Assembly: GCA_905178155.1 (NCBI GenBank)
Contig: CAJINV010000013.1
Coordinates: 2,600,158-2,664,157 of the forward strand
DNA: 64,000 bases
From: Amoebophrya sp. A120
Taxonomy: Eukaryota > Protista > Dinoflagellata
Direction: 5' to 3'
Part shown: positions 886-63,640 of the stretch, in pieces
Layout of the letters: every line of letters begins with the position of its first letter
Numbering within the stretch: the first letter of the stretch is position 1
The notes under the pieces: model-generated
The model's input: the letters and a program-made list of their open reading frames with translations, nothing else
What the model was told of the DNA's origin: nothing
Database searches by the model: none
Program-made: the position numbers and the translations under genes

Positions 886-3800
886 TTAGTTTTTATTTTT
901 CGCTTTGTAATGCTGAGAACTCAGAAATGTTGGGATTTGGATGAGAAATCCTACGAAAGACAAAGTCTCCCGCTTAGTAACCCAAGGCAAGGTTGTCGCT
1001 AAATTTCTTACTTTTACGAAGAAAGACCTGTCATGCAGGTTTTCCATGACCCATGAGGTCTGGTATGTAGGACATAGCATGACAGATTCTGTGAGAGTTC
1101 TATCACTATCATGCCTATCCTGCATGAGAAACTGCCTCCCAACTTGGTCTGAAGTGGACTGCTTTTGGCACTCATGCAACACAGATTTTTGCATTCTTCG
1201 GAATTAGCATGACAAGTTGCAATCTTCCAGACCCAGACATTTTTGCAATCCATATCGCACACAGGTGCTCCTTGGAAAAGTTGTTCTGCAACAGGATGTA
1301 TCAAATGCAAAAGCATCGCACTCGTACTAATCGCAGATATGCATGACAAATCTGGTTCCCAAGGTAAATCAGCATGACAAATTCCATTTTCCATTCTGAG
1401 GGAATTTGTCATGCGATTTATACTAGTACGATACTTTTGCAATGCATAGGATGTACACCAAGTACGCCGCGTAGAACCGGTAAATCTGTGGCTGTTTCGG
1501 CAGCATCCCGTTGTTCAGCTCGGCTTTCTATCAAATGTAAAAATGTCTGGGTCTGGAAGAATTCATGTTTGTCATGCTTGTCTGGCATGACTCTTAAATC
1601 TGTCATGCACGTCACCCAAGAGCTCCGCTTTTCTGTGATGCGGAAGCGCAGTTTGTCATGCAGAATAGGTAACACCTAGGAGCTCAGAAACTTGTCATGC
1701 TGAGCCAGCATTTTTAGCCTCATCATGAGACGCCACCCAGCATCACAAGTTTCCAGACCCAGACATTTTTACATTTGATACTTTCTCGATCAGGTCCAGA
1801 TTCACGTTGCAGGCCTCCGCCACCTTGAGTTCCGGAACCGAGGACTGGAGCAAAATTTTCTGGTACGTGTCCCAATCAATTTTGTCAGCCGTGATGGTCT
1901 GGCTCGCTTCCAGTCGTTTCTTTTCCTCCCGCATCTGCGCATGCTGGAGAGTGATCAAGGCTGGAGCTGTATTATCTGCTCCCGCTGTTGGAGCTGAGCC
2001 GTCACCGCCTCGCTTATAATTTTGGCTATCGGATCCACCTGCTGCAGCTCCGACTACAGTGACTTGATGCTGTACTGCGTGCTTATTTGATTTTCCTTTT
2101 GCAAGATTTACCCCGGCAGCTCCGGGTGCCCCAGCACCTCCTCCCCCCTTGCTGTTCTTGCTCGTCGTGTTTGTGTGCAGTATCGTCCCCTTGTTTTCCA
2201 CCAGACCGCCGACGTGGCCCGCTTTGTTCTTATCACTCGCATGGTACGTGCTCGCGAACGGAGTGCACATGTAGCACACGTGCAGATCCGTCTCTGTCAA
2301 AAGCTTCTTCCGCATCGCCATCAGCATGTCGTAGGTTTGGTACCCCGTCTCAATATCCATGCCGGAACGCACAATCGCCGTGCCCAGCTTTGTCGCCTGG
2401 TACGCATCTCGGGTTTTGTCGTACGCCACCAAGGGCATGCGCGCTACCTGCACCGGCGCGGGGGCTGCGGTAGATGAACTACAGGGCTGCTTGTTGTTGT
2501 GTCTATTGTTGCTTGCTGATGAAGCTCCTCCACCACCCTTGCTATTGTTCTGCTTCTGCGCTGTAGCAACAGTGACCGCACCGGACTGTTGCTGGGATTT
2601 TTGTGATGGGATAGCGACGTCCTGTGCCATCAAATACAACATGGCGTTGTACAAGTCCGGATGTTCCTTTCGGACGTCCTGTCGCGCTTTCGCTATGTCT
2701 TGCTTCGCGCCTGCTACAGGAGGTGCGCCTGTGGTTGCCACTTCCTGGTGCTTTCTACCTTGTTGTCCACCATCCAACACCTCTGCAAGAGAAGTGGACG
2801 AGTCCTTCTTTCTCTTGTTATGCACGAGAAAAGTGCAGTTGGAGAGCTCTATCAGACCATAATTGCTATTAACCGGGCCCCCGGTAGTTGTTGTAGCTGC
2901 ACCACCGCCGTCTATCTGATTTCGCTTTTTGCTCTTTTTCGTGGCCCCACCTCCGCCACTCGTTCTCTTCACCGCCAACATTTCCAGCACGAGGCGTTTC
3001 AGACCCACTTCGTCCAGGCATGATTTCAAAGGCGTCATCTTCTCGTTCATCAATCGCATGCCCTTCCGGTAGTCGTTGCACAAAATGATCGACTCCCCCT
3101 GCACGCCCTGGCCCTTCCTGCCAGCGCGGCCACACATCTGCTTGTACTGGGCAACGGTGAGTTCCCCCTGGCCGATATCCTCAAGAAAAACGTCCCCACC
3201 CCAGAGTTGTCATGCAGATTTGCATTGACAAGAACATTTGTGATGCGCATACCCATGGTAGGCATTTCCAATCGTGTTTTGGAATTTGTGATGCTCTGAA
3301 CAGGATAAGCAGACGGATCTGTGATGCGGCTGCACTTGCTAACCTGCACTACACTACGGAGTGCAAGTTGTCATGCGTGACTCCCAAAGCTCTTAGGTTT
3401 GTGTTGCAAAATCCCCATCTTGACTCTGGTGTGGGGACGTTTTTACTCAGGATAGCCGATCTTGATCCCGCGGAAAATCACCCGCCGCGCGGGCAAATTC
3501 ACCCCGGCGGCCAACGTGCTGGTATCAAATGCAAAAATGTCTGGGTCTGGAAACTTGTGATGCTGGGTGGCGTCTCATGATGAGGCTACAAATGCTGGCT
3601 CAGCATGACAAGTTTCTGAGCTTCTCGGTGTTGCCTATTCTGCATGACAAACTGCGCTTCTGCATCACAGAAAAACGGAGCTCTTGGGTAACGTGCATGA
3701 CAGATTTAAGTTAACTCTAGACCGCTCGGAATGTAATCGTGATTCAAACGGAATTCAAACTGAATTCAAAAAGTTGGCATTTTCAAAAAAACGCCCCTCC

Positions 3801-6800
3801 GAGGGGGCGAATCGGGCGAAACAAATGCGGCGCGCGACAGCTATAGAAAACGGCCTGTAGCCGCTTTCACACGAACGCTGCGCCCTGTGCTTGGTCCAGC
3901 GGACCAGGCGCGAAACGGCAACTGGATCCAACCATGCGAAGGAACTTCCGGGAAATGGGGCGAGCGCGCTTTGGTTCGACCGGCGGCCGAAGTTTGTTAT
4001 CATGCCTTAACTTGCGATCCTTGAAACCCGGCTCGGCGCCAGGGGGGTGCTGCCGGTGTAATAAGAGAAGACCCTGCCCAGCCACGGAAAAATGCCGGGA
4101 ACCGTCGGGGGCCGGCGCATGCGGTTAGGAGCATGGCTGGCCTCGGTGTCGGGGTCGCGGCTTGGCCCGGCGAGCGCCCAAGCAAGTCAGCCTGTGCATA
4201 TTGCATGTGACGCTACTGGACAAAATGCCGCCAGGGGCGAGGCCATCCCCGGCCGCGATTCCCAATGCGGTCAGCCACCCAAGATCGCCCAGGCTGGTCT
4301 CGGTAGGTGAAGTCGACTGGAGGCACAACTCTGGTGGCCCGGACCACAAAATCCCATCCCCCACCAATTCAAAATCCATCCGAATTCTGTCAGAATCCGT
4401 CCGAATCAAGAAGCCAAGTAGGGGACAAAATTCGGACGGAATTCCGACAGAATTCGGATGAGTTTTGAATTTGCCCCGATGGCCCCGATGGAGTTTGAAT
4501 TGGGGCCGATCGTCCGGATGGGTTTTGAATTGGGGCCGGTCGTCCGGATGGAGTTTGAATTGGGGCCGGTCGTTCGGATGGAGTTTGAAATTGAGATCCA
4601 CTCCCCGATGAGCTTTAGAATTGTTGCGCCGATCCCAAATTAGCGCCGCAAAAAAGCGCAGCCCCCTTCTGCGCTCGTGCGGGCCACTTGTAGCGTTCCT
4701 GCCTGAAGTGCCAAAGCCAATAATAGCGCCGGCCGCGGAAATGACTAGACCGCCACCCGTGTCAGACAGGCGCTACACAATAGTGGCGCGAAATTTTAAG
4801 CCACGACAGAGCGCCGTCGCCCTTCGCAGGCGATGCGGGTGTATGCCGGAAAGTGAATCAGAGCGCATCGCTCTGGCCCTCGGTCATCATTCAGCAACAC
4901 TGCTAGTACGGCGCGGAGCAGCTCTTCGGGTTGAGCCCGTCCCCCGAGCCAATGAGCCAGCAGGCAGCGGCGCTACCAGGTCGCCAAAAGCTGCCGGGGC
5001 AGCAACCGCTGAGAGTCCGGGGCATCGCGGATTGTGGCTCATTTCAAAAGTGCTCACTTTTTGAATTCATTTTGAATTCGTTTTGAATTCAATTTGACAC
5101 CGCCTGGTCCAGCGTTAAGATTTAAGAGTCATGCCAGACAAGCATGACAAACATGAATTGTTCTTGAAGACCCAGACATTTTTACAGTTGATAGCTGGTG
5201 CAGCACAGCACTTTGATCAGCGAGTTTTTGTACAGCCGGATCAACTATCCTGTGCAAAAGTATCGCACTCGTATAAATGCAAGTCTTGCATTACAAATCT
5301 TGTTCCCAAGGCAAATCTGTATTACAAATTTCATTTCTCATGCTGAGGAAATTTGTAATGCATTTATACGAGTACGATACTTTTGCAATTCATATCAACA
5401 AATCTTTGTCGGTTTTCGGCAAGTCCGCATGGTGGTACGCGATGCCCCGCGGGACGGAAAACTCGAGAATCTCGTTTTTGTTATTCCCGACATACCGGAT
5501 CGGCCGTTGCCCGGTTTTGTCATTCGGATCGGTACGAACCGGGAGCCGCTCGGCCAACTGACGGCACGTGGTTTCGCACATTTTTTTCGACGCGCAGAAG
5601 ACCAGGACGGAGTGGTTCTCGGCGAGTGTGTCCTGCACGCAAGCGTGCAGAAACTCCGGATCGTTCTCCAGCTTTGCCGGCAGTTGGTGGCTCCGCACCA
5701 CTTCCCCGTGGCAGTTCAGCAATGTGCCGCGGATATCTGCGGGGAGGAGTTCTTGCTGGTCTTGATGTTGATTTTCGCCATTTTTCGTACTTGTCTTCCT
5801 TCCGATGTCCATTTCCTGGAGCAGTTTCTGGTCGAATTTTCCCTTCGTTTTCTCGTTGAAGCAGATCCACTCCGACAGCGTGACCGGGCGGTAATCCGTG
5901 ATGAACAGCTCCGCGTCGAGCCAGTTCGCGATTATGGGGTTCTCAATTCTCAAACGTCACATTCTCAACTGTTACATGAATCTGTAATGCAAGAATGGCA
6001 AAAGTGAAACGGGGGACCTTGCGCGTCTTGCATGACAGATTTGGCACAGAGTATCAGCCTGCTTAGGCCTCTGAGAATTTGTCATGCTGAGCAGCTTGAT
6101 CGCATCGATTCTGATTGTGACTTTGCATGACAAATCATGTAACAGTTGACAATGTAACATTTGAGAACGCCGTAGCGATTTCATGCACATTGGGCATGGT
6201 CGCGGACATCCCCACCAGCTGGATCTCCGGGGCCAAATACCGCAGCTTCGCCAGCGTCACCTCCAAAATGTACCCGCGGCTGGGCTCCTGCAGCAAGTGG
6301 ATTTCGTCGATGACGATTATGGAAAACTTTTTCAGCTCCTCGTCCCCGGTCGACGCGAACAGGTTGACCACGTAGTTCGCCTTCTCGATGGTGCAAATCC
6401 CGATGTCGAAGTAGTCCGTGATTTTTTCCTGCGAGGAACCGTGGAAGGCACGGACGATGAGGCCGGTCTTCTCGCACAACTTCTTCAGATCGTACTCCTT
6501 TTCATTCACAATCGAAACGTAGGGAAGGATGAGCAACGCCGGGCCGACCTGCTGGTGGTGGGGAATTTTTTGTTTCTTTCTCTTCTTTTTCTTCTTGGTA
6601 GTGCCCTGGTGTGCCTGTGCAGCTTGTTCCTCGCCGCCGTCGGCTTGCTGGTCATGATCTTTTGCGGCGAAAACTGTGGATTTGCGCTTTGGAGAACTAC
6701 CAACTGCGTCGGCATCATGATCCGCCCCCGGAGCGTCATCTTCGTCAATATCCAAAACTTTTCCCCTGCAGCCGGTCACTGCTCGCAGCATCAACAATTC

Positions 6801-9236: not shown

Positions 9237-10208
9237 TATTTCCAAATAGATCTGCTAGTGCAACGTGGAAGCACGCACAAATCCAATCAATGTCAAGACG
9301 CGGGCAAAAAATAAGGACAGATCTGCTTAGTGCTTGGTGTTAGTCTTAGATCTGGAAAGAATAGGGACACGTCATTAAGCTGGAATAGGGATATTACCGA
9401 TACACATACATCACCTTCTACAGACTTCATCTACAACTACAGTGTGCTTCTTGCTATGTTTTGAGCGCCGGCGACCTCATCGGTATGGTCCGTCCTTACA
9501 TACCGGAATAAATTAAGTATGCGTCTTCTCCTGCTACAACAACTCTAACTACTACCTCGGGTTCAACATCCGTAAAAAAATCAGTCATTGTCATGTTGTA
9601 GATGTGGATCTTGCGAGGAAAGCAACAGGTGTCGACGTAAGGCGAACGCTCGAGATCAGACACGACGAGGACCGGGGTGGCCCACCTTGCTTTATCTTTC
9701 TTTTTCCGGAAAGTGGTCCCAGGAGCAACTGCGCCGTCAACCACCAAGTCGCGAAACACGAATACACCGCCACGATGAAAAATCTGAAGTCAGATCGTAA
9801 CCTTTACGTGTGGCTAAACCGTAGCAAGCAAGCTTCCTGAGGGGCAAGAAGAAAGCGGTAGAAGTACAGAACACCGAGAGGCTGCTCGACGCGAGCGACA
9901 CCTGCGATGCGCTGCAGAGGTTGGAGTGCAGATGTCATCTGCTGGTGCATACTCCTCCCGCAAATTCTTGAGAGAATGTGATTTTACTTGGATACTTCTA
10001 ATGCGCACTGTAGAGTAGGTTGAATATTCTGAAACGCAATGCGAAACGAGGCTTCCGACAGGGAGCTTATTAACGACATACAACATTGACAAAAGGTGTA
10101 CATTTTTGGTCCTCACGAGATTTGATTGTTAACTGACTGCACTTTTTGTACTTGACTAGCTGTTCACTTAAGTTCTCGTCCGAAAAGAATTTGAGTTTCT
10201 TATTCTTG

Positions 10209-30692: not shown

Positions 30693-33600
30693 CTACCAGG
30701 GTCCCCCTCCGGGCGGTGCGTTTGGATCCACGCCGCCACCCATATCCCCTTCGTAGTCGATGTACTGCTGATTTTCCGGCCCACCAGCGGTCGCGCCGTA
30801 GGCCAGCGGACTGGTGTCTTCGTACTGGGCCGCCCACGCCGCATCGTCCACGTAGTCCATCACGTCGTGCTCCGCGTTGTCGCCCCGCGGGTCTGCCATC
30901 ATGGTCTCGTAATACGCATACGTGCAAAAGATGCCCACGCCCAAGCCACCGGCGGTGAGCGCCATCACGAGCAAAGTTGTCGCCGTCATCCACGACGGGA
31001 GCTCCCTATCGCGAGAAAAAAGCGCAGCTACAGTTACACATGGTGTTGCGGGGCAAGCAAGATGAAAGATAACCTCCGTCATGCCGAACAAAGTGCTCGC
31101 GAGCTACATCGTTTCACGTTAGTGTGCGTTTTTCCGTTACTAGCGCCCATCACAAGTTTTCCACTTGCACTTTGTGATGCAGAAATACAAATCTGTGCCG
31201 CTCAAGTTGCACTTGCATCACTACTACATGTCTGACTGTGGCACTTTTCTCCTTGGATACTCTCCGACGTACTCACAGTACCCCGCCGCTTCGTTACTCC
31301 GCACTATTTGGTAATCTGATTTGTTTAATAAGTAGTATTTTGTTTCTATGGCAAAATATTGCATGGAAACTAAAAGAGGAAGTTGCCACGTGAGTAAATT
31401 GATATCAGTACCTTTTTTCAGATGGCAGGTTTCGCAGTCTGGTTTTGCAGCGTTATCAGAAATACAGTCGAAAATTCCGTAGCCCTCTTCGCAGTCACAG
31501 AATATCGTCTGCTCGTCATACGCACCGCGGAGCTCCATTCGCGGGAGCTCGTAGTCGTTGTCCGGGTCCAACCGCTCCTCGGGATGAGTGATGGTTTGCG
31601 CCGGAAACTCGCCTTCGCACCAGAGATGCCGGATGTCCGGATCATTCCACATTTTCACGGTAGAGGACGCTTCCATCATGTAGTCGAGGCAAAACCGGAT
31701 GTCCTTCAGCATGATGTGCTGCATGCAGGCAATTCCCGGGGTCATGGCCCGAAATTCGAAGTAGCAGGGCTCCGTCTGGCACCGGCGGAAGGCCTCGACG
31801 CTGGAAGTCCACACCAAGTCCTGTTGCCAGTACTTCTCTTTGGTAATCCGCTCGTCCGGGGCGACACCCCCGCAAGTTTTCTGAAGGGACGACTTTTCGC
31901 CGTACTTCGCAACATAATCCCGGTACATGGAATCATCCGGATTCTCCTCCTCGCGGTGCTCCGGGAGCACTTCGGTGTAATTGAACGTGAGCATATCGTC
32001 CAAATCGCCAGTGCTGGTCAGGCTCTCCAGGACCGTGTCGTCGGAATACAGTTTCAAAAATAAACCGCCACCGTTTATAACCCGCTCAGGTGTTACAATC
32101 TCAAACGTTGCAATAGAATTTGGAATTTGTGTTGCAAAATCCGCAACATCTGGCCTACTCCCAAAGGAGCGCGCATGACAAGTTTCGGAGCCCCAAACCA
32201 CATGAGATTCTGACGAAATTTGTATTGCGAAAAGCCCAAGTCTCTGTATGGTACTCATGCTGTTCATGCAAGACAAATTCCAGATTCTGTTGTAACGTTT
32301 GAGATTGTAACATCTGAGCAAGCCATACCGTTCTCGAACGATTTCTTTGCTCGCGCTTCGTCTCGGTTTGTTACTTTAGGCTCGTGATCGACGCGCATGT
32401 GCACTTTGTACTTGGAAAAGTGGAAGGTGCCGTTTCGGCCCTCATCCCCCAACCAGTCCGGAATTGTGTGCTGGATTGGGAACTTGAAGGGCGCGGACCT
32501 GGCCCATTGGCCCTCGTCGGGAAAGTCCCACTCTTCGCCTTCGCGAAAGACGTTCCCCGGCAGAGCCGCATTCAGCCCGGAGTTGTTGACCCCGTCAAAG
32601 TCGAACTGCTCCTGGTCGATCATTTCCCGGAACAGGCTCGGATGCAACGCTCCGAAGAGTCCGGTTTCCGTGTTTTTCACGCGCCCGATGAGTCCGCTGC
32701 AGCCCCAGTTCCGTAAGCAGTGGTACCAGAGCGGAATCTGCCCTGGTTGAAACCCGAGGACGATTCCCGTCCCCATGTTCGTCGCGTTCCCTTCCCCGGC
32801 TGTCAGGTCCAGGTCGAGGAGGTCCTGTGCGAAAGTGCTTATTTTTGCATTTGCAGCCTGCTCGTCGCTTATTTCATATGCGTGTCTGTTCGAAGTCGAG
32901 GTGAACGACGCTTTATTTTGTGTTTTCCTCTTGTTCGTCTGTTGTACTACTTGGCTCCTTTCGGTCTGGAGGAGGCTTGTTTGGTTCAGCTTCAGAAGAG
33001 GTCGACCTGCTGCACCGCGGTCGTAGATCCGTGCTTTCTGGTTCCAGCTTGTTGTAGTAGTTCCTCCTGAGGCAACATCCAGGGCTGCAGTACGAGAACC
33101 TCGCGCGCCCTTTCTTATTTCATTCCAGTTCGCTCTTGTTGATGTCCTCGACGGCGCAGGCCTACTACTATACTCGATTTTTCTCCCTGTTTCCCGTTTC
33201 CGTACGGTCTCCAACACGTTCTGCTGAAACCAGATTTGCTCGGGACTCTTTGCTTCATTTTTCACTACACGGGCCGCGGTTTTTAGTACAGCTCTGTCGC
33301 GCTGGTGTTGCTCCTCCTGTCGTTCTTGGAACTCTGTATTACTAGTGCCCGTGTCCTGTCCGCCGTCCGACGTGGTTGTTGTTTCTTCTAGCTGCGACCC
33401 TGGCGCGGTCAGCACAGCATGATGGCGTTCGTATTCCTCTCTGTTCGAAGATGTAGATGTTGCGCTATTTTCATGAACCCTCGATCCTGCAATCGCGAGC
33501 TCATCTGTTGCGGTCGTGGTATCCACTGAAGCAGCTGCAGCGGTAGAAGAGATTTCCAGCGTCTGGGCTGTCGTGTGTTGCAGATTCATGTGTTCCAGGT

Positions 33601-38319: not shown

Positions 38320-41300
38320 TCATGTCCACACGCCAGCAACACACGATGAGAAGCAGAAGTCCGCGAGTGGCTCTTTAGTACATCGGCTTCCGACTGCGGG
38401 TGGAGAAAACCGTGCTGTTGGTCTTCGCCGGGGAGCCGAGCTGCGTGGCGACTTGGCTCAGATGATCGACCGCCATGCCGTAATACGCGTTGTTTTCCTT
38501 GTCTTTGCGCGATTTCATGCCCGGTGGCACGATCAGCTGCGACTTGAAGCCAACCTGATAAGAAGTATTTCCAATTCCATTCTTTTAGCATGATACGATA
38601 GATAATGCGTATTTTCTGTGCCGCTTTACATATTAGCGATAGCACCCCCATGCTTAGCATTAACTGCTTGATGTGCACCGTCGAATGACAAGGATCATGA
38701 ACACATTCCTATCGTAAGAAAAAACTGTTTCACTGTAAGGATTTTGCAAGATTTGCATCACAAGTTTGTTCTACATGACAGAGAAAATTTGCCATGCAAG
38801 CTTCCTAAGGGGAAACACAGCTAAAAATCTATTTTCTTGCATGTGTAGCAAGACAAATGCTTCTGCGTTCCATTTTATGCATCACAAGTTCGCAGTGAAA
38901 CAGTTTTTTCTTGCGATAATTCCTACCTGTGCATCCACCCACTCCTTCATGGTCTCCTTGTCCCCGAAGTCCTTACTTGTCATCCCGTGCGTCTTCAACA
39001 GAGCGTCGAGCAACCCCTTGATTTCGAACTCCGCGCACGAAAGCTTCTGTTCCACGGTGGTGGGTTTCGCCTGCGCTTCCTGCCGTACTTTCGTCTCTAG
39101 TGCCGTGAAGGTGTCTCGCCACTTCGCCAGCGAATTTCTCCAGGATTCCTTGACGCACGCGTCTTTCCACGCGGTGAAGTAGGACTTGGCGATGTAGTTA
39201 TTCTCCCAGAACACGGTGACCTGAAGATGGGGCAGAGCGATTTATTCAAATTAGTGAATGCTCTGGCTCTCCTCACCGTTGCTGCTAACGTAAATCCAAA
39301 TGGAGAGAAAGCTTTTGGATGACAGCTCAAAGTTTAGTTCCGTGCAGCTTTTGAATCACAAAGAACTCGAAACCAGAATGGTTCTCCTGTATAATTTTGT
39401 TCTGTTGTACCTCACACGCCCGGCAACCGTTCAGCACCGCTTTTTCCTTGATATCATCGTAGGCCGAGCGTATTTTGTCGATTTTTGACAACTGCCGTGA
39501 TACCCATCGGTCTTTCCAAGCGGAGAAAACGGTTTGCTGCAAGACGTGCTCGCTGGACTTCAAAAAGTTCATCATGGTCGCCTTCAACCGTTCCGAGGCT
39601 TGTATTCTCAGCTTCTGCTTCGACTCCTCCTGTTTCTTCTTGTTCCGGTATTCCACTGCGCATTCTTGCCAGGAGCTGAATACCTGCCGGACTAGGAGCT
39701 CCAGCTTGCCGTCAAACATCATCAGCATGGACTTCTTTATCTGGAAAATTGTGTGGTGTACAGTAGTGGTTCTTTTGCTGCATGAGAGATTTTGTTCGTG
39801 CGCACATGAGCATGACAACTACATCAACATCACAAGATCAAGAATGCGAGAACTGCATGACAGGGATACCCGTTGCTGGACAATCAGAATCACAATACTA
39901 GCAGCATGGCAATAAAATACCGCTGTCAGGCTTTTCTGCTTGAGCCTACTGGTGTCTTCGTGGTATTTTCTCTGCCACTATCAAATGTAAAAGTGTCTGG
40001 GTCTGAAAACTTGTGATGCTGGGTGGCGTCTCATGATGAAGCCACAAGTGCTGGCTCAGCATGGCAAGTTTCTGAGCTTCTAGGTGTTGCCTATTCTGCA
40101 TGACAAACTGCGTTTCTGCATCACAGAAAAACGGGGCTCTTGGGTAACGTGCATGACAGATTTAAGAGTCATGCCAGACAAGCATGACAAACATGCATTC
40201 TTCCAGACCCAGACACTTTTACATCTGATAGCCACTTCGTTGCTTGCTGAGTCAAGGCGTACCGGTTCCAATTTTTGAAGACATGCTGTATCATCAGGCC
40301 CGTCCTGTCGCCGATCATGCGCGAGACGACCTGTGTATTTTTCACTAACCGGCTTCATTTCTAGTGCCGGTTGTTCATCACACGATCCGAAAACACAAGG
40401 CAGAGAAGATAACGACACATGAATCATGACACGGCCTCAGTACCAACATCAACATCAACATGATAAATAAACAGTAACAAAACCGATTTTCATTTTTAGC
40501 ATATTTCTAGTACCTCGTTCATCCGATCCATGTTGGCCATTTTGTATTCCCGTTTTGACTGCTCGTAGACTGCTTGTTCCTTTTTTCGCATCATCCGGTC
40601 CATACCGAGTTCCTTCCAGTTCGCGAAGATTTGCTGGAAGTACAGGTGCTGTTGCGAGTCAAACATCGAGATTAGTGCGTGCTGGAACCGCTTTGACTCC
40701 TTCATCTTCTGCTCCAGCATCCGCTCCCGCATGCGAATGCAGTGGTTCTCGTTGGTCATCCTCCTCCAGGTCTCGAAGATGTGCTTCCCGATCAGGCTGT
40801 CGTGGTTTTTCAACAGCCCGTATCAAATGTAAAAGTGTCTGGGTCTGGAAGAGTGCGCGATTTGTCATGCTGCTTTTCCATGACCCATGAGGTCTGGAAT
40901 GCAGGACCTAGCATGACAGATTCTGCGAGACCTTTCTAATGCCTATCCTGCATGAGAAACTCCCTCCCAACTTGGTCAAAACTGGGCGACTTTTGGTAAT
41001 CATGCAACACAGATTTTTGCATGCTGCAGATTTAGCACGACAAGTTGCAATCTTCCAGACCCAGACATTTTTACTACATTTGATAAACCGGACATGGACT
41101 GCTTCCACTTCTTTTCCGAGTCCTGGAACTTTTTCGCTAGATCGGCTTGCTTCTGGTATGCAATGTAAATTTCCCGTACATGTACAAAATGCATGACAAA
41201 TTTCGCTAACTTGCAGTGTCCAACTTGTCATGCTAGACTAGGACTCAAGGCAAGTTTTGTCATGCAGAGACTGCATTTGTACGTGTACGGGACATTTACT

Positions 41301-43226
41301 GTGGATATCTGGAACTTCTGGTCCACGTAAACTTTCTGCCACCCGTTGAAGGACGACTGTCTTATCAGTTCCGTCTGCGACCCCAGCATCGCCACCAAAG
41401 ATTTTTTCACTGCGGAATTCGCTTTCAATTTCTGCTCGGCGAGTCTGGGTTGTAGTTTTGTTTCAAATTGAATTTGAATCTGTAAATTTGAAATGATGCA
41501 TGAACAAGAATGCGGCGCACAGACGACGCAAGTTTCTCATGTCGGTCCGGTATTACCAGTACGCCGCAAGAAAAGGACCAAAGCGGCTACACCAAATTGT
41601 AAAATGTAAGTACTTGGTCCCGAGGTCGTCCGTATCGAATCTTGCGGTTTTTAAAGCCTCTTCCATCCGGTGTATTCTTGTTCGCAGGGCGTAGTCCTTC
41701 CAGAGGGTATACACGTGCTTCATCAGCAGACTGTGTTGCGTGTAGCACTGCATGTAGATCCTCTGTTTTATCTGGTCGCGGAAGCGTTCCTTCAGCTCCG
41801 AGTTGTTCTGGAGCCAGGTGGTTTTGTGCTTTGTCAACTTCTCCTCTACGTAGTGATCTTTCCAGGCCTGGAAGTAGCCCCGCTGGAGCGAGTCGTCCTG
41901 CAGTTCAAACATGGCGATGGTGCGCTGGAGCAGGGCGTGTCGCGAATGCTGCTTCATTTCGTTCACGGCAGACCTAGAGAATGTTGTGATGGAAAAATGT
42001 GTATTTGTCATGTGCTTCTGGAGTGAATGTGTGCACTACCAGTGGACGAAGTCATGCAACACAATAAACAAAGTAAGCGGTGCTACTATGTGTAGTAAGT
42101 ACCTCCAGCTGTTTTCTCTCCTTTTTGTCAGCTGCTCCTGCACAAATTCTTTCCAGCCGATAAAGATCGTCCGGGCAAAAACTAGATCGTTGTTTCCGCA
42201 CATGTGCGTCAGTATCCTTTTCATTTGCGCGGCGCCCTGGTAAAAACGTTGAATGCATTTGCGTTGTTTCATGTCCATGTGTACACGAAAAATCACATAC
42301 TGCAACTGCATATTGATAAATATTGGGAAAACACATGACAAACACAAACAACAGCCGATGAAAAACAAGAATTTCTCCTACCTTATGCTTCACTTCGTAG
42401 AGCAGCATGCGGTATCTCTCCTGAAAAGATTTTGCCCTTTCCTCTTTCCAAGCTTCAAACTATCCTGAGTAAAAACGTACCCACCCCAGAGTTGTCATGC
42501 AGATTTGCCATGACAGGAACATTTGTGATGCGCAACCCCATGACAGGCATTTTCAATCGTTTTTGGGAACTTGTAATGCTGTAAACAGGATCAGAAGGTC
42601 GATTTGTGATGCGGCTTTCCTTGCTAACTTGCACTACCTTACGGACTGAAACTTGTCATGCGTGACTCACAAAACTCCTAGGTTTGTGTTGCAAAATCCC
42701 CATCCTGACTCTGGTGTGGGTACGTTTTTACTCAGGATACAAACGCAAACTTCAACACCGCACTACTTGTCTTGTCTGATATTGCACCCAGAGCTCGCTG
42801 GAGCCCGAGACTTGTCTTCGTTTTGAGGCTGGCGACCTGGAATTTGTTGCATTGTTCGGTAGATTTGTCCTGCCTGTATGTACAACATGAAAGAGATTTA
42901 TTTCTGTCATGCTGCACCTACAACAGATTATTTTCGCATCTTAGCCGCAAAATAAGTAATTCCATCTTTACCTGCAGTTTCCAGTAGTGATCCCTTTCCG
43001 ACAACTTTCCCCTCATGCACTGGCGGTACCACCCGGAAAATATCCCGTGCAGCTTCGCGGACTTCTGGGCCCGCATGGTGATGGCCATCGCCTTTTGCGC
43101 GGACTCCTCCGTGTTTTCGTACGCTTCCCGCTTGTTCGCGCGGAGCACTTGCATCAGGGTGGTTTCCGTCTGCCGGATGAGGAAGTCGAAGTCCTCCAGC
43201 GAGGAGCTGTTGCGACCCGCCAACAT
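38320..43226 (-). CDS. Sfi1-like repeat (putative centrin-binding) coiled-coil protein, many exons; ends approximate
   Basis: At least 11 repeats of an F..W motif across exons: GIFSGWY, FAFEAWK, TIFIGWK, GYFQAWK, SSFNGWQ, HIFETWR, QIFANWK, HVFKNWN, QVFSSWQ, TVFSAWK, SYFTAWK. Confidence 0.7.
38710..38918. mobile_element. Introner, family D (209 bp), located inside a GT-AG intron
   Basis: 26-bp near-perfect TIR tatcg(t/c)aagaaaaaactgtttcactg. DR attcc. Confidence 0.92.
39979..40230. mobile_element. Introner, family A1 (252 bp)
   Basis: Family-A TIRs. DR gccac. Excision restores ATKW|QRKYH. Confidence 0.95.
40821..41085. mobile_element. Introner, family A2 (265 bp)
   Basis: Family-A TIRs. Imperfect DR gcccg/aaccg. 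Excision restores SMSG|LLKNHD. Confidence 0.92.
41157..41307. mobile_element. Introner, family-C-like (151 bp)
   Basis: TIR gtaaat.tcccgtaca.gtacaaa. TA termini. DR tctgg. Excision restores QKFQ|KQADL. Confidence 0.9.
42461..42739. mobile_element. Introner, family B (279 bp)
   Basis: Near-perfect TIR tatcctgagtaaaaacgtacccac.ccagagt. DR caaac. Excision restores FAF|EAWKEE. Confidence 0.95.
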
Positions 43227-48900: not shown

Positions 48901-49475
48901 GTATACACGAAAAAAACTGCGTTCTTCGTGTAACTTTCTTTGGCTGGCAGCATCACAAATTTGCTCTACATGACAGAGAAAACCTGTCATGCGTGGTTTG
49001 TAAGCCAGGGAAAACACACTCACATGAAAAGAGGACGGCATGGCTGTCTGGCATGACAGGTGTAACTCTGTTGCATGTTCTGCATCACAGATTTACACTG
49101 ACACAGTTTTTCTCTTGCATACACTGCGGTTTTCCTTCTCAGGGATTCCTTCCTTACGTGCTCGTAGAACCCGTCTTCGTACAGCTGATCGTGGTCTATT
49201 TCTTTCTCCTGCGACCCCGGCATCTCGTAGCCGTCCAGCATCCGCAGCTCGTTATCCAGAGCCCGAATGTGATTCACCAGCTCCCGGGTGTTCACCGTAT
49301 CGGTGATGCGACTCGTCTGCGCCGGGCGCAGCTTCGCGGACCAGTCCTCCGGGCCCTCCTGCACCATCCACGGGTTACGCATCCGGACGTTGTACTGGAG
49401 ACCGGCACGCACCCCCTCGAGGTCCACCCGGTGAGGGTTCTTTTTTGTCACCCCTTTTGAGGATTTTAGGAACAT
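45939..49475 (-). CDS. MICAL-like FAD-dependent monooxygenase, paralog 1 (one introner)
   Basis: VSGAGPVGLHTAL (GxGxxG), VEKRNSFSRHNILTMWP, RELQLTLLKCGLLVGV and VGDALMEPFWPQGTGINRGF resemble MICAL monooxygenase motifs. The 5' exon joins via RKTAV|SRTYN. Confidence 0.85.
48902..49121. mobile_element. Introner, family D (220 bp)
   Basis: Ends tatacacgaaaaaaactgcgt and acacagtttttctcttgcata. DR cactg. Confidence 0.88.
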
Positions 49476-52035: not shown

Positions 52036-55000
52036 CTACCTGTACCCCATCCCCTGCCCCTTCATGGCCGCTTTGTCTTCCTTCATGGCGTTCTTCGCGT
52101 CCGCCTTCAGCTCCTTTTTCGTCACCTTTTTCTCGATCGCTCGTGGACAACAGCTGCGGCCGAACGCTTTTATCGGCCGCGGAATGTATAATGCGTCCTT
52201 AAAGGCAATCTGTATCTTTTCCCGGTCCTCCTCCGGCGTTATCGCGGTGAGCACGAATTTCTGCAGCGGCCCAGGCTTTCCGACGTAATTGGGGATCACC
52301 GGCCAGGGGTTTTCGATGCACTGCAGCCGGGTTTTCTGGTCCAGGTCGATGGCCGCAGTTTTCACCGTGGCAAGCTCCTGGTCGGTCATGGTGTAGGACT
52401 GGAGATTCCCGGCGAGGTTCAAGTACCGACTCCAAGGCCGGCTGTTCCAATCCTCCACTTTCTGGTTTAACTCCGGCCCTAACAGTAAACAGGATTTCTG
52501 TCGGTAGCAAAAGTCGGCGGAGAGCAACGCCTGGGATAAGTCCTGATCCATGTTGTACTGTAGTATGCAGAAACTCGCGTCGGTTCCCGTGTGGAACCCG
52601 CGGTTTATGCCCGTGCCCTGGGGCCAGAAGGGCTCCATCAAGGCGTCACCCACGGGGAAAATTGGGAGCAGTTTTTTCGGGTTCGGGTTCTATCAAATGT
52701 AAAAATGTCTGGGTCTGGAAGGGCGCAAGGTGTGTCATGCATAGTTTGCATGACTCCGGATGTCGGTGATGCATGCTCTAGCATCGCAGATTTTTTGAGG
52801 ACATCCTGATGCCTATACCGCATGAGAAATGCCCTCTCGCCGTGGCAAAAACCAGACCTCTTTTGCTGTTCATGCAATACAGATTTTTGGATAATGCAGA
52901 CGCAGCATCACAAGTTGCATTCTTCCAGACCCAGACATTTTTACATTTGATAGGTTCTCCTTCTTCACCATCGCTAAGTCGGCGTTGAAACCGTTCAATT
53001 GCTCCTTTAGCTCTTGTTTCTCCGCCTCAAACTTCTCGATTGTTGTTGTCTCCCTGGCTTTTTGCGTGTCCGAGACGAATTGCAAGCCGTGCCGCCTTTC
53101 TAAACACGTCCGGTCCAACCAGGCGATGGTCTTTTCGAGGAAGTTTGTCTCGACAAAGGCGAGTCGCGGTTCCGCGGAGTAGTCCATGGATAATATTTTC
53201 CCCGGTGTTGCGGTGGACTCCCCAAGAATTCGAAACGGCAAAGGTAGAGAGCTTCTCGAGCCGAAGTCAAACATCTTCGCCCCGTGGAAATCACAGAAAG
53301 GCACTGTCGTTGGAAGTCCAATCGCCGTGACAATTTCCCTACCGAGTTTGAACAGGTTCTCTTCGGAGATGTTGTCCCGTCCGATGAAATCCTTCCCGCC
53401 GATATCTTCCTTGCAGACCTTCTTGCTGAGCAGTGTCTTTTTCATAACGCAAATCGCGACGTAGTGCGTTGTCCCCCGTAGGTATTCCATAAATTCGAAA
53501 TCAATCCCAGCTGCTTTCAGCGCCGTTGCCGCGGGGCTGTTGAACGCCCCCTGCACAGTGAAATCTTGCACCTTATTCTCGGCCTTGTTTTTCGCATCTC
53601 GCCAGAGGTTGAGAACGATCGCGATAGCGCGAGAAAACTTCTGGATTTTCTTCGTGAACCCGAGTTTCTTACTGTTCGCGCTAGTCTCCCCCTCCGCGAG
53701 AACTAGCACGTCCGCTGATATGGTCATGTCAGGTTTGGAGGCGGCGAGCTTGCCATTCGACACCGCAAAGGTCGGGTCGAACGTGTTTACCTGTGAGTAG
53801 AGGGAACAAGGTTCTTGGCACGTCGTAGTTCATTGGTTTATTTGAATGATGCTAGGGTCAAGTAAGTATTCAAGTACATACGCTACGTAGGTCTCATCAT
53901 CAACACTATCTAGTTGTCTTCCTTTAATATTACAAAAGCTAATAGAAGTGAAGCCGAATCGTGCCAGGCAGCGAACAATAATGCCATGCGGTCGTGAAGC
54001 ATCCTGCTCTGTAAAAATACCTCAATCATCCCACACGCCCCGTCTGCTGCCCTCGCCTTGGCATCTTCGAACTTTCCGGCCTTCAAATCTAACACCCCGG
54101 TGGGCTCTACCCTTCCCGCGGGTTTTTTCAGCCCGACCGTCCACGTTCCAGAACTCCCGGAAACCGGCGGTGCTTCCAGCCCGATCGTCTCCCAATTGTA
54201 CAGGTATTTCACTCCGACGAGCAAACCGCACTTCAATAACGTTAATTGCAGTTCTCTTGTCCCCAAATGTGGTAGTTTGTCTCTATGCGAGAACAACGGG
54301 AAAAATTCCCGGCAGTTATACACCACCTGCACGTGCTCCGCGGTGCAGGCCCACATCGTGAGAATGTTGTGTCTGGAGAAGGTGTTCCGCTTCTCGACCA
54401 CCGTGACGTTCGCAAACCCGAGCATGTAGATGTCCAAAGCAGTGTGCAGGCCCACGGGCCCCGCGCCGGACACAATGACCTGCATGTTCGGGTCCTTGAG
54501 CGGCTTCGACGCTTTGCGCTTCTTCATCATCGGGACTAAATCATTAATCACTTTTTTCATGCGAAAGCTCAGCCCCGACAGTTCCGCGGCGGCGGCGAGC
54601 ATCGCCACCTTCGTTTCGAAGGACTTCGGATCGACGTTCTTCTCCCGGAGCCGCTGCTCACAGTGTTGCTGGAAGTTGTCAAACGACTCTAGCACCTTCA
54701 TGACCTCGTTCGACTCGAAAAAAGCCATGAAGTGATCCCGTAGCGGGTCCGACCCGTCGCCGGGATTTGCGGTTGGCGCGGGCGCCATGTAGGGTGGCGG
54801 GGTTTTCGTTACCGGGGGCGCTGGGGGCTCCGCGGCCTTCGGCGGTGGTGCTTGCTGCTGCTGCACCACTTCTTTCGCCGGTTGCGGTTCTGCCACCGCT
54901 TCTGCTGGTGGCTTAGTTTTGTTCCCGCCATGATTTCCGGTGGATTCCAATTTATTGGCGGCTATTTGTGATTGGATCTCGTTCGGGGGCTGTGCGGGGC

Positions 55001-58000
55001 TCAAAACCTGGCTGGGATCCACCAGGCTCGCTTTGGAGCCGCTCTTTCGGGGCGGCGAGTCGGATTTCTGGAAGATCGGGCTCGCAGACTGCGGCGCAGG
55101 CCGCGCTTTGTTGTTCGCAAAACTCTCGTTGATTCCCTCCAGCGGCGCATCCGCCTGCAAATTGCCGAATTTCAAGGGCGCGCGCTTCTCCTCCGCAATA
55201 CTGCCGGTGATTTTCGCCTGTTCTGTAGCAGCAGTAGCAGCTGCCTGGTCCTTGTTCAAACTCGCCGTTTGGGACAGCAATCCCGCCGTCCCCGCCGAGG
55301 ACGTCGGCGTTGGCAACAGGACGCCCGACTTCGTCGGCGGCAGCTGCTGTTCTTGCTGATTGTTGTTCAGGGAGGCATTTATCGCTGCTGCTCCGCCCAT
55401 GGACGAATTTGTGCTGACAATCACCTCAACGTTGTCGTCTTCAAACCCCTTACTAGGGATCACAATGTTTCCTCCTCCCGCCCCACGCGCCAGCTGCTTT
55501 TGGAAGGGACTAAAGTTGTTCGTCTTCTCCGGCGAGCCGGTTTTGGGCGGGGCGATCGGCATCGAATTCAACTTCGGCTCCTCTTTGACGTTGTGGTCCT
55601 CCGGCTTCTTTTCCACGGTCCGCAGCTGAAACTTCGCGAAAGCCGGGGCTTGCGAAGTTTCTTCCTTTTTCCCGAATCCGTCGAGGTCGTAGTTTTTCGC
55701 GACGACTTTTAACTTTTTCTTCGCGAAGACCGGATTGTCTTGCGGTGGCGGCTCGTGGAACTTGTTGACCCGCTGCTCGTCCTGCAGCCCCGCCTCGTCC
55801 GCGTGCACACTGCACTGCCGGTCCTTCGGCTTCTCGTTCGGCTGCGAGGGCTTCAATTTCGCCGACCAGTCCTCCGGGCCCTCCTGCTTCACCGCCGGAT
55901 TTTTCATGCCGGCCCGGATCGCCTCGATGTCGAGTCTCTGGGGCTTGTTGCCGGCGCCGTCGCCGTTCGTTATCCCCTTCAGGGGCTTGTTGAACCCCAG
56001 AGGCGTGAAGGTTTTGTTCGTCGGCAACCCCATGGGCATGCGGTTGTTCCCGACGGCGTTGCTACTCGGTGGCTTCGGCTGAGGCCAGGCCTTGACTTTC
56101 GCCTGCTTGTTCTTCGCGATTTGGTCCTTCAAGGACATACCACTATTCGAATCTGTCCGGTTGAAGTGCTGCGGCTCCGCCCTGCTTTTCGTCGCAGATG
56201 TTGTGGTTACCTGCGGACTTTTGTGGCGGTGTTCCTTTTTCTCTTTTTTGTGCTTGTGTTCCTTTTTCTCTTTCTTCTTCTTGATTCGCCTCCCTGCTGC
56301 ATCTGTAGTTGTAGTATCCTCTTCGCCGCTATCCGCAGATGAGTCCATACTCTGATCAGAGGCTCCTGCTGCGCCGGGCTGATTACTAGTATACCCAGGT
56401 GTCGTCGTGCTCGGCCCACTTAATATTTTCTCCGCGGCCGAAGCGCGAACAACTCCCCCCGGAGATGAATTATCTGCGGCAAAGTTGCTGACAATCTGTT
56501 GTTGCTGCCCACCAGTTGTACCGCTGCTCGGTGCAGCAATCGTCGCTGCGTTGACATGCTTGCCCAAATAGCCCATGTCGGCAGGTTTCGTTGCGTACGC
56601 CGTCCCTCCGGTACCCAGAGGGACGACCGCGCCCGCCGATGTGCCCCCGTCTTTGTTCTTCATAGTACTCAAGTACCCGGTGTCCGCCGCTTTCGTCGGG
56701 TAATATCCCGTCGTTCCCAGCGGGGTCACGGCGGCTGCGGAGTTTCCCCCCGCGGCGGCTTTGTTCATCCCCAAATAGTTCGTGTCCGCCGCTTTCGTCG
56801 GATAATATCCCGTTGTTCCCAGCGGCGTCACCGCGCCCGCGGAGGTGCCGGTATTTTTGTTCATGCTCAAATAATTGGTATCCGCCGCTTTGGTCGGGTA
56901 AGCGGTGTTCGTCCCCATCGGGGTCACGGCTACCGGGGAAATGCTCGCCTTCTTCTGGTTCAGGTAGTCCGTATTGGCTGCCTTGGTCGGATACGCATTC
57001 AGGGGACCCCCGGGGCCCAGCGCGATTTTGCCGTCCGGGTTGTTCACGTTGCGGTTTATGGGGTTTTTCAAGTAGTCCGTTTTCGCGGGCGCCGAGTCGT
57101 AGGCTGACAGCCCCGTCGGCGCCGGCTTGTCCGGGGGTTGATACGACACCTCCGGCGCGGGGAGCTCGTCCTGCATTGTCGTGGGTGGGCGATATGGTAT
57201 GGTAGATATCATGTGGAAAAGCGTACTAGTAACCGCGGCCCCATATTCATTGTCATGCACAGCTGAATGCTCAGAATGCGTCTCATGCGGCTCCGCAGGC
57301 GAGCCATAATTTTCTACTTATCCACGGTTGCGAAAGAAGTTCGTCACGTGCTAATAATCAAGGTAAAACAGTGGCTCCGTGAAGCAAATAATCTAGCTAG
57401 GCACGACTAAGCATATGACTGCATAGCGGCCATCATCAAACTTGTTGTCATGTGTGAGTCCTCTCAAGAACAAACCTCTTGGATTTGTCTTGCAGACTTC
57501 CCAGCCTGACAATGTATCTGAGCTGGGTCGTAGTACGTTTTTCCACAGGATAGCAGGCTCTTCTTCACCCTTCCCCGAGGGTGGCGGCGCGTCGCTTTGA
57601 ATGGGGTCGTTGCCTAACGGCGCGGCCGGCGCGTCGATGGCCTGGTCGCGGTTTGTCTCCTGCAATTTCTCGTTTAGCCTGTTAAGCGACTCCTGGATTT
57701 TGGCGGGGTCCCGGGTCTTCAACTTTTGCGCCACTTCGTCCAGCATATCCTTCCCTGCGCCGGGCAGGGCCCACTGGTGCGACCTGTTGGCGTCCTCGCG
57801 GTACTTTGAGAGGGACGTCTGCGTGTAGGACACGTTCTGTTTGGATTTCGGGTTTGACGCAGTGACAACCTCGGTGATCTGACTCTTCGTTAAACTCTTG
57901 CTTATATCTGGTGCACCGCTGGGGTGGCTTCCCTGCCCCGCCCCGGCGGCGGGTTTCATACCCTGATAATCCTCCTCCTGGGTGTCCGTCCGCTTCATGG

Positions 58001-60956: not shown

Positions 60957-63640
60957 TTACCCGATGAACTTCCCTCCGTCAGCGACGCGCAGGATGGCCG
61001 TAGCGTAATCGTTGAGCACCTCCGTGATCTTGTCGGCGGTGATGTCGCCCACCGCGGCCGGCTCCTCGGCGCAGGTCTGGCACAGCTTCGCGATGATGCG
61101 GGCCGGCATGATCAGGGAGCAGGGCTTCAGGTTGTAGTCGTACTTGGTGGCGAACCGCAGGCGGTACAGCTTCTTGGCGCCCGAGGCGTCGGACAGGACC
61201 AGCTGCCGGTTGTGGGTGGCCTGGAACTTGACCGGATTGATGAAGCGGTCCTGGATCATCTTCATGTGGTTGCCGGTTTTTCCCGTGCCCGGGTTGGCCA
61301 CCATGTACTCCGTGGTCATGATCCCCCCGTCGGAGATCTCCTGGCCGAGCGCGTTGTGCGTGCACATCAGGTGCATGCCCGAGAAGGGGACCATGGCGGC
61401 GCGCACCGCGTCGACCACGGCCTCGTTGGAGGGGGCGAGGAACATGTTGGTCAGGCGGTCCAGCATGGGGGACAACGCCAACACGCACAGGTGCGCCATC
61501 AGCAAGCCCCCGCAGATCGCCTGCCCGGTCAGCTTGTTGTTGGTGAAGGCCTCGTAGGAGGACCCGTGGATCAGGACGGTGACGCCGGTGACCTCTGGCA
61601 TGCCATCATCAGCGTCACTCTCCTCGCAAGCCTTCAGCATGGCCATCAACCGCGTCATGCGAGCCTCGTCCAAATCGTCCACGCCCACCAGAAAGATCGG
61701 CTTGCGCTTGTGGTGACCCTCCTATCAAATGTAAAAATGTCTGGGTCTGGAAGAATCCAACTTGTCATGCTGATTTTGGATTCTAAAAAAATCTGTATTC
61801 CATGAGCAGCAAAGAGAGTCCAAATTTTGCAGCACGGAAAGAGCATTTGTCATGCGGAATAGGCATCAGGAAGCCCTCTAAAAATCTGTGACGCTAGGGC
61901 ATGCATCACAGACTTGCGGAGTCATGCAAAATGTGCATGACAAACCCGGCAATCTTCCAGACCCAGACATTTTTACATTTGATACCTCCTGGTTGTTGAT
62001 GATCTTCTCCTTGACAATCGTCCGGGCGGCGTCCACGGTATAAAATGCAAAAGTGTCTGGGTCTGGAAGAATGCATGTTTGTCATGCTTGTCCGGTATGA
62101 CTCTTAAATCTGTCATGCACTGTACCCAAGAGCTCCATTGTTCTGTGATGCAGAAACGCAGTTTGTCATGCAGATTAGGCAACACCTAGAAGCTCAGAAA
62201 CTTGTCATGCTAAGCCAGCAGTTGTAGCCTCATCATGACCATGAGACGCCACCCAGCATCACAAGTTTCCAGACCCAGACACTTTTGCAATGCATACACG
62301 GTGGGATCGGGCAGTTCGGCTTCCAGGTCGAACACCGGGCGGTCGAAGAACTGGGAGGAGAACTTGGCCTTGTGGTTCTCGAAGCTGCTGGTGGACATGG
62401 TGAACATGACCGGGCGGCGGTTGGACGGCCAGGTCACGTTCTTGATCACGTTCTCCAGGTTTTCCGCCGGCAGCTCCGTCTTGGCGTCGCGGGTGGTCGA
62501 CTTCTTGGTGGCCACGTTGGCGTCCGAGGGGATGCACTTGGAGATGAAGTTGGTCAAGTCGCCCATCGCGCCCATGCACTCCTTCTCGTCCAGGCCCGCA
62601 TCGCCCGCCAGGTGCCCGAACGCCTGCTGCGGCGCGCAGTCCTTCTCGTACTTGTCCTTCAACATGGCCACTATGCATTGCAAAAGGATGTTGGGATCTT
62701 CGCACGCGTGGTACTATAAATTGTCGTATCACAAATTTTTTTTTTATTTCAGAAGGAGATGAAATAATTCCTCCTGGGATTGTTTGATGTTATGCAGATT
62801 TTTGGTCACAAGTACCGCGACGTGATTCTGTCAATATCTGCACAGGAGCATGCTTTCAATTAGTACCTACCACTACTAGTGCGACATCACAACTTCTGCC
62901 GGGAGGATAAACATGGCGTCGATCTCCGCCTTGCCGGCGGAGGCGAAGGCCTTCCAGGCGGAAGACTTGCCACCGTTGCCCGCAGCGTCGTACTGGCCGT
63001 ACAGCTTGTACAGAACACCGTCCGGATCCGGGTAGAAGTCGTCGGCGGCGACGATCTTCAGCATGGTCGGGGCGCCCTTCCACCCGGAACCCACCAGGGT
63101 GTTCAGAAAGCCCATACCTGTTTTTTATTTTTGTCAGCATGATGGGTAGAAGAACTCAAAGGAACGAGTTGCGGACGGCAAGCGTCGACGTAACAAATTG
63201 TAGGCTCTCCCTGGTTGTGCTGTATTCGCATGAAATACGTTGTAGAAGAAGAAGTTCTCGGGTGACGAGATAGAGATATAGAAAAAAAGCGTTGTCGCCG
63301 TCGCACGAAGAAACTTTATTATACCCAAGATCCCCGCCTCGATGGCGGTGCAGAACTCCGGCTTCGAGTTCAGCGTGGCCGTGATCATCAGGGTACGGAT
63401 CTTCAAATCCGCCGAGTAGCCCGCAGCCGTGTCGACTGCGTTCCAGTCCTCGGCGCCGTGGGTGCGCTCCTTGTGCTTGAACAGCGTTTCACGCACTTTC
63501 GTCACGAAGGACTTGTTGAAGCCCAGGTGGCGGGGGTCGAACAGGATCACCACCTTCTTCAGGTTCGCCTTGGAGCACTTCACATCACCCGAGATGGCGA
63601 TGGGATCGCGGTGGGAGGCGGACGGCGACCAGAATTGGAT
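60957..63640 (-). CDS. Hypothetical globular protein, at least 5 exons; 5' end unresolved
   Basis: High-GC3 segments at 63320-63640, 62890-63115, 62297-62671, 61985-62038 and 60957-61722. Joins LPDPTV|DAARTIVKEKIINNQE|GHHKRKPIFLVGVDD are in frame after introner removal. Confidence 0.7.
61723..61984. mobile_element. Introner, family A3 (262 bp), opposite orientation to 52691-52952
   Basis: Perfect 32-bp TIR. DR cctcc. Confidence 0.96.
62039..62296. mobile_element. Introner, family A1 (258 bp), same orientation as 1529-1780
   Basis: TIR tgcaaaagtgtctgggtctggaa. TA termini. DR cacgg. Confidence 0.95.

Follow-up and report, generated by a model that had tools for sequence, protein, structure and literature searches.

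The stretch of DNA that we analysed, from the marine parasite Amoebophrya sp. A120 (64 kb in all, hereafter the window), contains introners, which are small non-autonomous elements with terminal inverted repeats (TIRs) and a 5-nt target site duplication (TSD). Copies lie in exons in both orientations and are removed exactly from the mRNA, with no requirement for GT/AG or for particular target bases. They are likely cut from mRNA in either direction because their two ends are mirror copies of each other. Furthermore, one copy (40821) fixes the cut after the fourth base of the TSD. The elements have been published and bidirectional introners are known; the position of the cut is a modest new detail, and a testable one. 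In Gozashti (2025), the introners of A120 are reportedly treated by transposon class alone.

In the text of PMC7789003, Farhat and colleagues (2021) described A120 introners with inverted repeats that start with TAT, followed by seven variable bases and then As, along with direct repeats of 3-5 nt, a hairpin, a length of about 240 nt, and non-canonical ends supported by RNA. The elements in the window are from the same organism and share the TAT-N7-AAA ends, the direct repeat, the families, and the RNA-supported removal without GT-AG. In contrast to that text, which says that the intron border is unknown, we fix one border, and we count both orientations. The mentions of orientation that we found there concern genes. 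Neither the text and supplement of PMC7789003, searched by terms, nor the accessible literature gave us a passage on how the elements are oriented or on a fixed cut in A120; Figures S19-S23 of PMC7789003 may show more. Gozashti (2022) cites the study of Farhat and colleagues.

Introners lie in both orientations in minus-strand genes

The window contains 21 introners with both ends, which are 149-358 nt long except for one of 1671 nt. Their ends are inverted TAT...ATA, and each is bordered by a 5-nt TSD, which is imperfect in three (12259, 31007, and 40821). Run on 390 kb of shuffled sequence, our element detector found none. Comparison of internal sequences, in the window and in the loci listed from the larger sample described below, shows repeated families. 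An earlier reading of the sequence alone had proposed that the same introner is tolerated in both orientations relative to transcription, and its coordinates for these named copies are correct:

1529..1780, minus strand: introner A1, orientation 1; TSD CTTTC; in an exon of a POLQ/HELQ-like helicase gene; no RNA cover
3523..5193, minus strand: introner A1, orientation 2, with a nested 1.4-kb insertion (about 3711-5117); same POLQ/HELQ-like helicase gene; no RNA cover
39979..40230, minus strand: introner A1, orientation 2; element + 5 nt removed; joint 39973>40231 in 4/4 runs
62039..62296, minus strand: introner A1, orientation 1; by sequence comparison, taking out the element and TSD restores the frame
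52691..52952, minus strand: introner A3, orientation as 40821; joint 52685>52953 in 1/4 runs (X1)
61723..61984, minus strand: introner A3, opposite to 52691; TSD GGAGG, giving a chance GT..AG if cut after the fourth TSD base
20079..20339, minus strand: A3-related introner, opposite to 52691 and 40821; splicing inferred from the end of an X1 contig
3176..3454, minus strand: introner B in the helicase gene; no RNA cover
42461..42739, minus strand: introner B; element + 5 nt removed; joint 42455>42740 in 4/4 runs
12259..12565, minus strand: B-related introner in the opposite orientation; decayed at its transcript-3' end, which reads ACG for ATA; TSD CGCCT / CGGCT; splicing inferred

We judged orientation on internal sequence, with the TIRs removed. 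The A1 copies at 1529 and 62039 match the reverse complement of 39979 at 93% and 90% identity, and that of 3523 at 96% and 91% over 156-162 nt. Relative to 52691, the copies at 61723 (81%) and 20079 (65%) are inverted, and 12259 is opposite to both 3176 and 42461 (65% in global alignments, and 71% in a local alignment to 3176). Same-orientation control comparisons gave 52-61%, which is the noise level. Thus, related copies do occur in both orientations (65-96% identity in reverse complement), and the opposite pairs that had been named in A1 and A3 hold. The B pairs are opposite as well, but at 65% identity the "family B" that spans 12259, 3176, and 42461 is, judging from these alignments, a loose superfamily.

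The host genes are on the minus strand, as had been claimed. A codon-score model, trained on minus-strand open reading frames (ORFs) of the same window, assigned 109 of the 110 strong-scoring 150-nt windows to that strand; all eight Pfam-positive ORFs are on it (47 ORFs were scanned); and all six of the canonical joints described below read as GT-AG on it.

Introners are removed from RNA and kept in DNA

The RNA evidence consists of assembled contigs from four runs (X1-X4) of one sample; contigs drop rare variants. We take these runs to be mRNA because their contigs lack six GT-AG introns. The DNA side is a single DNA-like run (X5).

In each of X1-X4, a single unbroken contig runs across ten joints within 39740-42970. 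Six of these joints read as GT-AG on the minus strand, and the other four excise the introners at 39979, 40821, 41157, and 42461. With the six canonical introns and the four introners removed, the spliced contig has a stop-free frame of 687 codons. The joint across 52691 was assembled in X1 alone, and X1 record 3 joins 15285>15649, skipping the introner at 15291. All six of the directly joined copies lose exactly the element plus 5 nt (one TSD).

The directly joined copies of the A and B superfamilies (4 of the 6) are all in one orientation class. For the opposite class, X1 record 6 ends its match at 20073 and then continues for 1110 letters, and X1 record 2 ends at 12253 and then continues for 67 letters. 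These stops are the exact predicted joint sites, and the far side starts with the TSD, from which we infer that 20079 and 12259 are also spliced. No joint at 48902 is among those listed for the RNA contigs of that region, and the helicase gene that holds 1529, 3176, and 3523 has almost no RNA cover. In that gene, excising each element with one TSD yields a helicase frame of 1769 codons over six elements, including A1 in both orientations.

X5 covers all 30 bins of the window. Its record 13 covers 13824-16370 without a gap, through the introner at 15291, and other records run from the flanks into the ends of 1529, 3176, 12259, and 20079. Since X5 keeps the elements while the RNA contigs skip them, these data place the removal at the level of RNA. 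This does not support the suggestion of transposase-like excision, insofar as it means excision from DNA.

The joint across 52691-52952 reads as GT..AG on the non-coding strand, so aligners that ignore strand would report a canonical plus-strand intron. Such wrong-strand readings may be the source of the CT-AC class that PMC7789003 lists in its Table S4.

The cut falls after the fourth base of the TSD in one copy

If the TSD is perfect, the position of the cut is hidden. At 40821, however, the TSD reads CGGTT upstream and CGGGC downstream (in transcript sense):

40821..41085, minus strand: introner A3 with mismatched TSD; intron 40817-41086, with ends TT..GG; joint 40816>41087 in 4/4 runs

This joint is unambiguous in all four runs of the one sample: the mRNA keeps CGGT from the first copy of the TSD and C from the second. 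Numbering the TSD bases N1 to N5, the intron consists of N5, TAT...ATA, and N1-N4. The mismatch thus places the intron boundaries 1 nt upstream of the stem and 4 nt downstream of it, a cut that is polar in the direction of transcription. A symmetric cut does not fit this joint, which is the sole informative one. The imperfect TSD of 12259 allows cuts after N3, N4, or N5 (three of the six registers) and is compatible with 40821.

In the N4 register, every copy starts with N-T-A-T, with T at +2 in 100% and A at +3 in 99%, as set by the end of the element. The canonical donors of the same gene all start with GTA (6/6). The register seen at 40821 is the one, of six possible, in which +2 is T and +3 is A, matching these donors. 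The terminal T is broken at the transcript-5' end in 1 of 262 copies and at the mirror position in 6, which is not a significant difference (p = 0.125).

A larger sample of copies

Scanning for the TIR pattern in another assembly gave at least 146 loci (538 kb) with the same families; the best copies are 82-96% identical to those in the window. There were at least 339 distinct elements, including the 21 from the window. We dropped 62 for a missing strand or flank, and the codon model gave the host strand for 277, with predicted calls of 233 coding, 29 ambiguous, and 15 non-coding. The strands predicted from the junction and from the context agreed for 202 of 210. All of the counts from this sample are among the matches listed.

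All 14 clusters with at least four members have predicted coding copies in both orientations. The two orientations number 35 and 22 for A3, 14 and 21 for A1, 52 and 64 for superfamily A (p = 0.31), and 11 and 12 for B. Two groups are skewed, at 17 to 4 (p = 0.007) and 4 to 14 (p = 0.03), without correction for multiple tests. These skews, noted for the cluster of the window's 48902 and 38710 among others, could reflect unequal efficiency of splicing.

TAT occupies positions 1-3 at 225 of 233 5' ends, and A occupies positions 11-13 in 220-231 copies. The TSD is perfect in 195 of the 233 coding copies, with a detector threshold of at least 3/5. Retention would shift the frame in 145 of the 233. 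A GT-AG or GC-AG intron would be possible, in any register, for just 17 of 233, and none of the eight copies touched by RNA has GT-AG on the coding strand in any equivalent register. In particular, neither the six direct joints nor the two inferred ones use the conventional GT/AG pair that each strand might have carried, just as the sequence-only reading had supposed. For 31 of 233 copies, a pattern of G-TAT..ATA-G would allow a GT-AG intron with a gain of 3 nt. This route was rejected, as it is not used at 42461 although it is possible there; the joint is net-zero. Insertions fall into the three codon phases in 105, 62, and 55 copies (222 in all); the most frequent are those whose TSD has a complete codon at its centre. 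Under a target model that is symmetric between strands, 38% would be expected in the top class, versus 47% seen (p = 0.02), so we draw nothing from the phase. A residual preference for G at N4 and N5, which appeared in 20 copies from the window, was gone in the 233.

The terminal stem forms in both orientations in all 12 of the window copies that we folded (z from -1.3 to -11.4, stem probability 0.48-1.00). The elements also share a motif, TGTSATGC, which occurs (on either strand) 686 times in 52 kb of element interior, once in 15.6 kb of exon, and 3 times in 946 nt of canonical introns. In transcript sense there are 303 forward and 283 reverse occurrences. TGTSATGC may be a protein-binding site common to the families, and canonical introns may contain remnants of elements.

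How might the introners be removed?

Because neither orientation nor target sequence matters, the signal would lie in the symmetric ends. We give an even chance to removal by a relaxed, hairpin-guided spliceosome. The elements would insert by DNA transposition, in random orientation. Pairing of the TIRs, perhaps aided by a protein that binds the recurrent TGTSATGC, would draw the ends together and take the place of recognition by U1 and of the AG. The terminal TAT would provide donor positions +2 to +4 (N-TAT, resembling the canonical GTA), and the acceptor would be chosen by distance, 4 nt beyond the stem. The adenosines at -5 and -7 in the terminal ATA, which are the only invariant As, would be the candidates for the branch point. 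A120 retains 83 of 89 spliceosomal proteins as well as U2, U4, U5, and U6, with U1 undetected (PMC7789003), and all nine of the predominant non-canonical motifs in Table S4 of that paper have T at +2, although these motifs depend on the aligner. The spliceosome of Fritillaria is adapted to introns without GT/AG (PMC13326754, PMC11282704), and in Stentor the branch A can be just 5 nt from the end of the intron (PMC9505925).

With the same TIR at both ends, an element presents an unchanged donor and acceptor context when it is inverted, so the tolerance of both orientations needs no special explanation. The sequence-only reading took the two orientations as an argument against the spliceosome. 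That argument fails: symmetric ends read alike, and in Polarella, introners are spliceosomal in either orientation (10.1101/2020.10.14.339549). It is the loss of GT/AG, rather than the tolerance of orientation, that calls for an explanation.

Several observations weigh against a spliceosome that cuts in a fixed register. Spliceosomal catalysis normally favours G at +1 and a terminal AG. In the N4 register, 78 of 233 copies start with GT, 23 end with AG, and 8 do both, with no preference for either feature. Once codon position is allowed for, there is no preference for target bases at any position (222 copies, all p > 0.06). The branch motif YTRAY is rarer at -15 to -50 than in shuffled sequences (27 of 232 versus 90), with the host's branch consensus unestablished from six introns. 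Thus, of the canonical U2-type features, we find neither GT(GC)/AG nor, 15-50 nt upstream of the acceptor, a branch motif. A difference between the two TIRs in conservation or decay was another candidate signal, and none was found: the 5' and 3' TIRs are equally conserved and have decayed equally (228 versus 228 mismatches, p = 0.73), with no sign of specialisation as donor or acceptor. The register itself comes from one copy and one compatible copy, in one sample. Mismatches within TSDs are synonymous in 26 of 43 cases, versus the 32-43% that a fixed cut would predict (p = 0.0004-0.018, in the window and the listed loci), and their spectrum shows no AT bias that would account for this excess. 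This hints that both copies of the TSD sometimes reach the mRNA, that is, that the cut wobbles. Finally, the Fig. 3 legend of PMC7789003 calls the sites variable, and euglenid introns of similar anatomy are excised as circles, not lariats (PMC11282704).

Some of these observations would suit a non-spliceosomal, structure-guided nuclease that would cut 1 nt upstream and 4 nt downstream of the TIR stem, with an RNA ligase to join the exons. This is nearest to the idea in the sequence-only reading, and we regard it as somewhat less likely than the relaxed spliceosome. Total indifference to the flanking bases fits it better than it fits a spliceosome. The strong stem in both orientations, the symmetric conservation of the TIRs, the missing branch motif, and the precedent of nonconventional introns in euglenids (PMC11282704, PMC12621601) also favour it. 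However, of the six possible registers, the cut uses the one that resembles a canonical GTA donor; no such enzyme is known, and we made no search for one; the needs of the transposase and a young age would explain symmetric TIRs equally well; and copies with weak or damaged stems (20079 and 12259) appear to be spliced still. Of the proposal of structure-guided removal, then, the lack of a usable GT/AG or branch motif, the stem in both orientations, and the equally conserved ends stand, and excision from DNA and a symmetric cut do not.

Alternatively, the cut might slide along the TSD and so differ between molecules or between copies; any machine that aligns direct repeats would suffice. This would explain the synonymous excess and the "variable" sites of PMC7789003, but a single form was assembled at 40821 in all four runs (from contigs that drop rare variants), and we consider it improbable. 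Codon-likelihood and AT-bias tests on 38 copies with mismatched TSDs favoured no register, so the codon-likelihood test speaks neither for nor against sliding. Excision from DNA, whether transposase-like, programmed, or polymorphic, would have the transcripts come from element-free templates. It would suit the TIR and TSD anatomy, which is that of a DNA transposon, but it is already largely refuted and very unlikely, given that X5 spans or enters five elements (in one DNA-like run, whose contigs drop rare forms) and that the element-free RNA contigs lack the GT-AG introns as well. A hairpin with short direct repeats is also the usual setting for template switching by reverse transcriptase. We can give hardly any credence to joints of that origin: retention would often shift the frame, keeping any one of the six copies in the helicase gene would truncate its 1769-codon frame, and one unbroken contig crosses all ten joints in each run. 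Equally remote is the use, on each strand, of a separate conventional GT/AG pair with a branch point. Chance fits do exist (the 8 copies with GT..AG in the N4 register and the 31 with G-TAT..ATA-G), but this explanation is refuted for the copies examined, where none of the direct or inferred joints is GT-AG and all are net-zero, including 42461 with its 3-nt option.

Comparison with other unusual introns

Introner-like elements of Polarella glacialis (classes 2, 3, 6, 7, 8, and 10) form introns in either orientation, and the same source cites this pattern in Aureococcus (10.1101/2020.10.14.339549). Like the A120 elements, they have TIRs and TSDs; unlike them, they take their GH and AG sites from the TSD or from the end of the element, whereas no dinucleotide is required here. 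The introns of Fritillaria borealis are likewise derived from miniature inverted-repeat transposable elements, with TIRs, a TSD, and non-GT/AG ends, and are removed by an adapted U2 spliceosome (PMC11282704, PMC13326754). They differ in that their preferred ends are AG-AC or AG-AT and U1 is kept; the A120 ends are NT..NN and Farhat and colleagues did not detect U1. The nonconventional introns of euglenids and diplonemids share a stem that pairs the ends, TSD-like repeats, and the lack of GT/AG (PMC11282704, PMC12621601). In contrast, their pyrimidine/purine junction and CAG/CTG at +4..6 / -8..-6 are not found here, where +4 to +6 are T, C, and A/C, and the lineage is unrelated.

Other elements and host genes in the window

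The remaining introners, and the canonical introns that share a transcript with four introners, are:

1299..1448, minus strand: short introner, of one family with 5246-5394; repeat detection and sequence comparison
5246..5394, minus strand: short introner in the helicase gene; repeat detection
5933..6174, minus strand: introner in the helicase gene; repeat detection
15291..15648, minus strand: singleton introner in a kinase-like gene; element + 5 nt removed in an RNA contig; present in the DNA-like run
22978..23283, minus strand: introner, TSD GAAGG; repeat detection
31007..31259, minus strand: introner with one TSD mismatch; repeat detection
32076..32327, minus strand: introner; repeat detection
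38710..38918, minus strand: introner copy within a canonical GT-AG intron, a few bases past the GT donor
41157..41307, minus strand: short introner; element + 5 nt removed; joint 41151>41308 in 4/4 runs
48902..49121, minus strand: introner in a MICAL-like gene; removal agrees with a public A120 protein model
39741-39920, 40331-40513, 41445-41613, 41974-42102, 42237-42381, and 42837-42971, minus strand: six canonical GTA...AG introns

The copy at 38710 is intronic, not exonic, and was not among the copies named earlier; lying near a canonical donor, 38710-38918 could act as a nested intron. At about 1001-1254, close to the end of the helicase gene, there is an A3-like copy whose transcript-3' TIR has decayed. 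The nested insertion at 3711-5117 lies between direct repeats of 8-9 nt. Its ends are short and imperfectly inverted, and within it are further inverted repeats as well as a 30-nt tandem array. A few further copies are suggested by X5 contigs whose letters differ and whose depth is 2-4 times that of the flanks, and there were zero matches among the at least 146 introner loci listed. Because the host frame is intact around the copy at 3523, the intron that was enlarged by 1.4 kb is probably still spliced.

An atlas search found helicase-domain neighbours only. The 1008-amino-acid ORF at 45942-48965 (minus strand) is 100% identical, over 98%, to an Amoebophrya sp. A120 protein and has a 64% relative in strain A25. 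The MICAL-like genes at 45939-57317 are tandem paralogues with about 82-83% identity and differing introner content, and the second has exonic repeats of 96-102 nt at 56680-56945. For the gene that holds 52691, the tandem paralogue has an empty site, with a gap-free alignment there.

Implications

How the majority of A120's introns, which are non-canonical, are spliced is an open question in the text of PMC7789003. Mismatched TSDs reveal the position of the cut from existing RNA-seq. A fixed N-TAT...ATA-NNNN register, if true, would predict where the branch points lie, would correct gene models (some copies are GT..AG on the wrong strand), and would explain how the elements invade exons freely. 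More broadly, and somewhat speculatively, tens of thousands of A120 introns might be removed by a ruler that needs no splice dinucleotide: a symmetric stem, with cuts made 1 nt ahead of its base and 4 nt beyond it by either a spliceosome-independent nuclease and ligase or a U1-less spliceosome that branches in the terminal ATA. If so, any such TIR transposon would be a ready-made intron, at any position in an exon and in either orientation.

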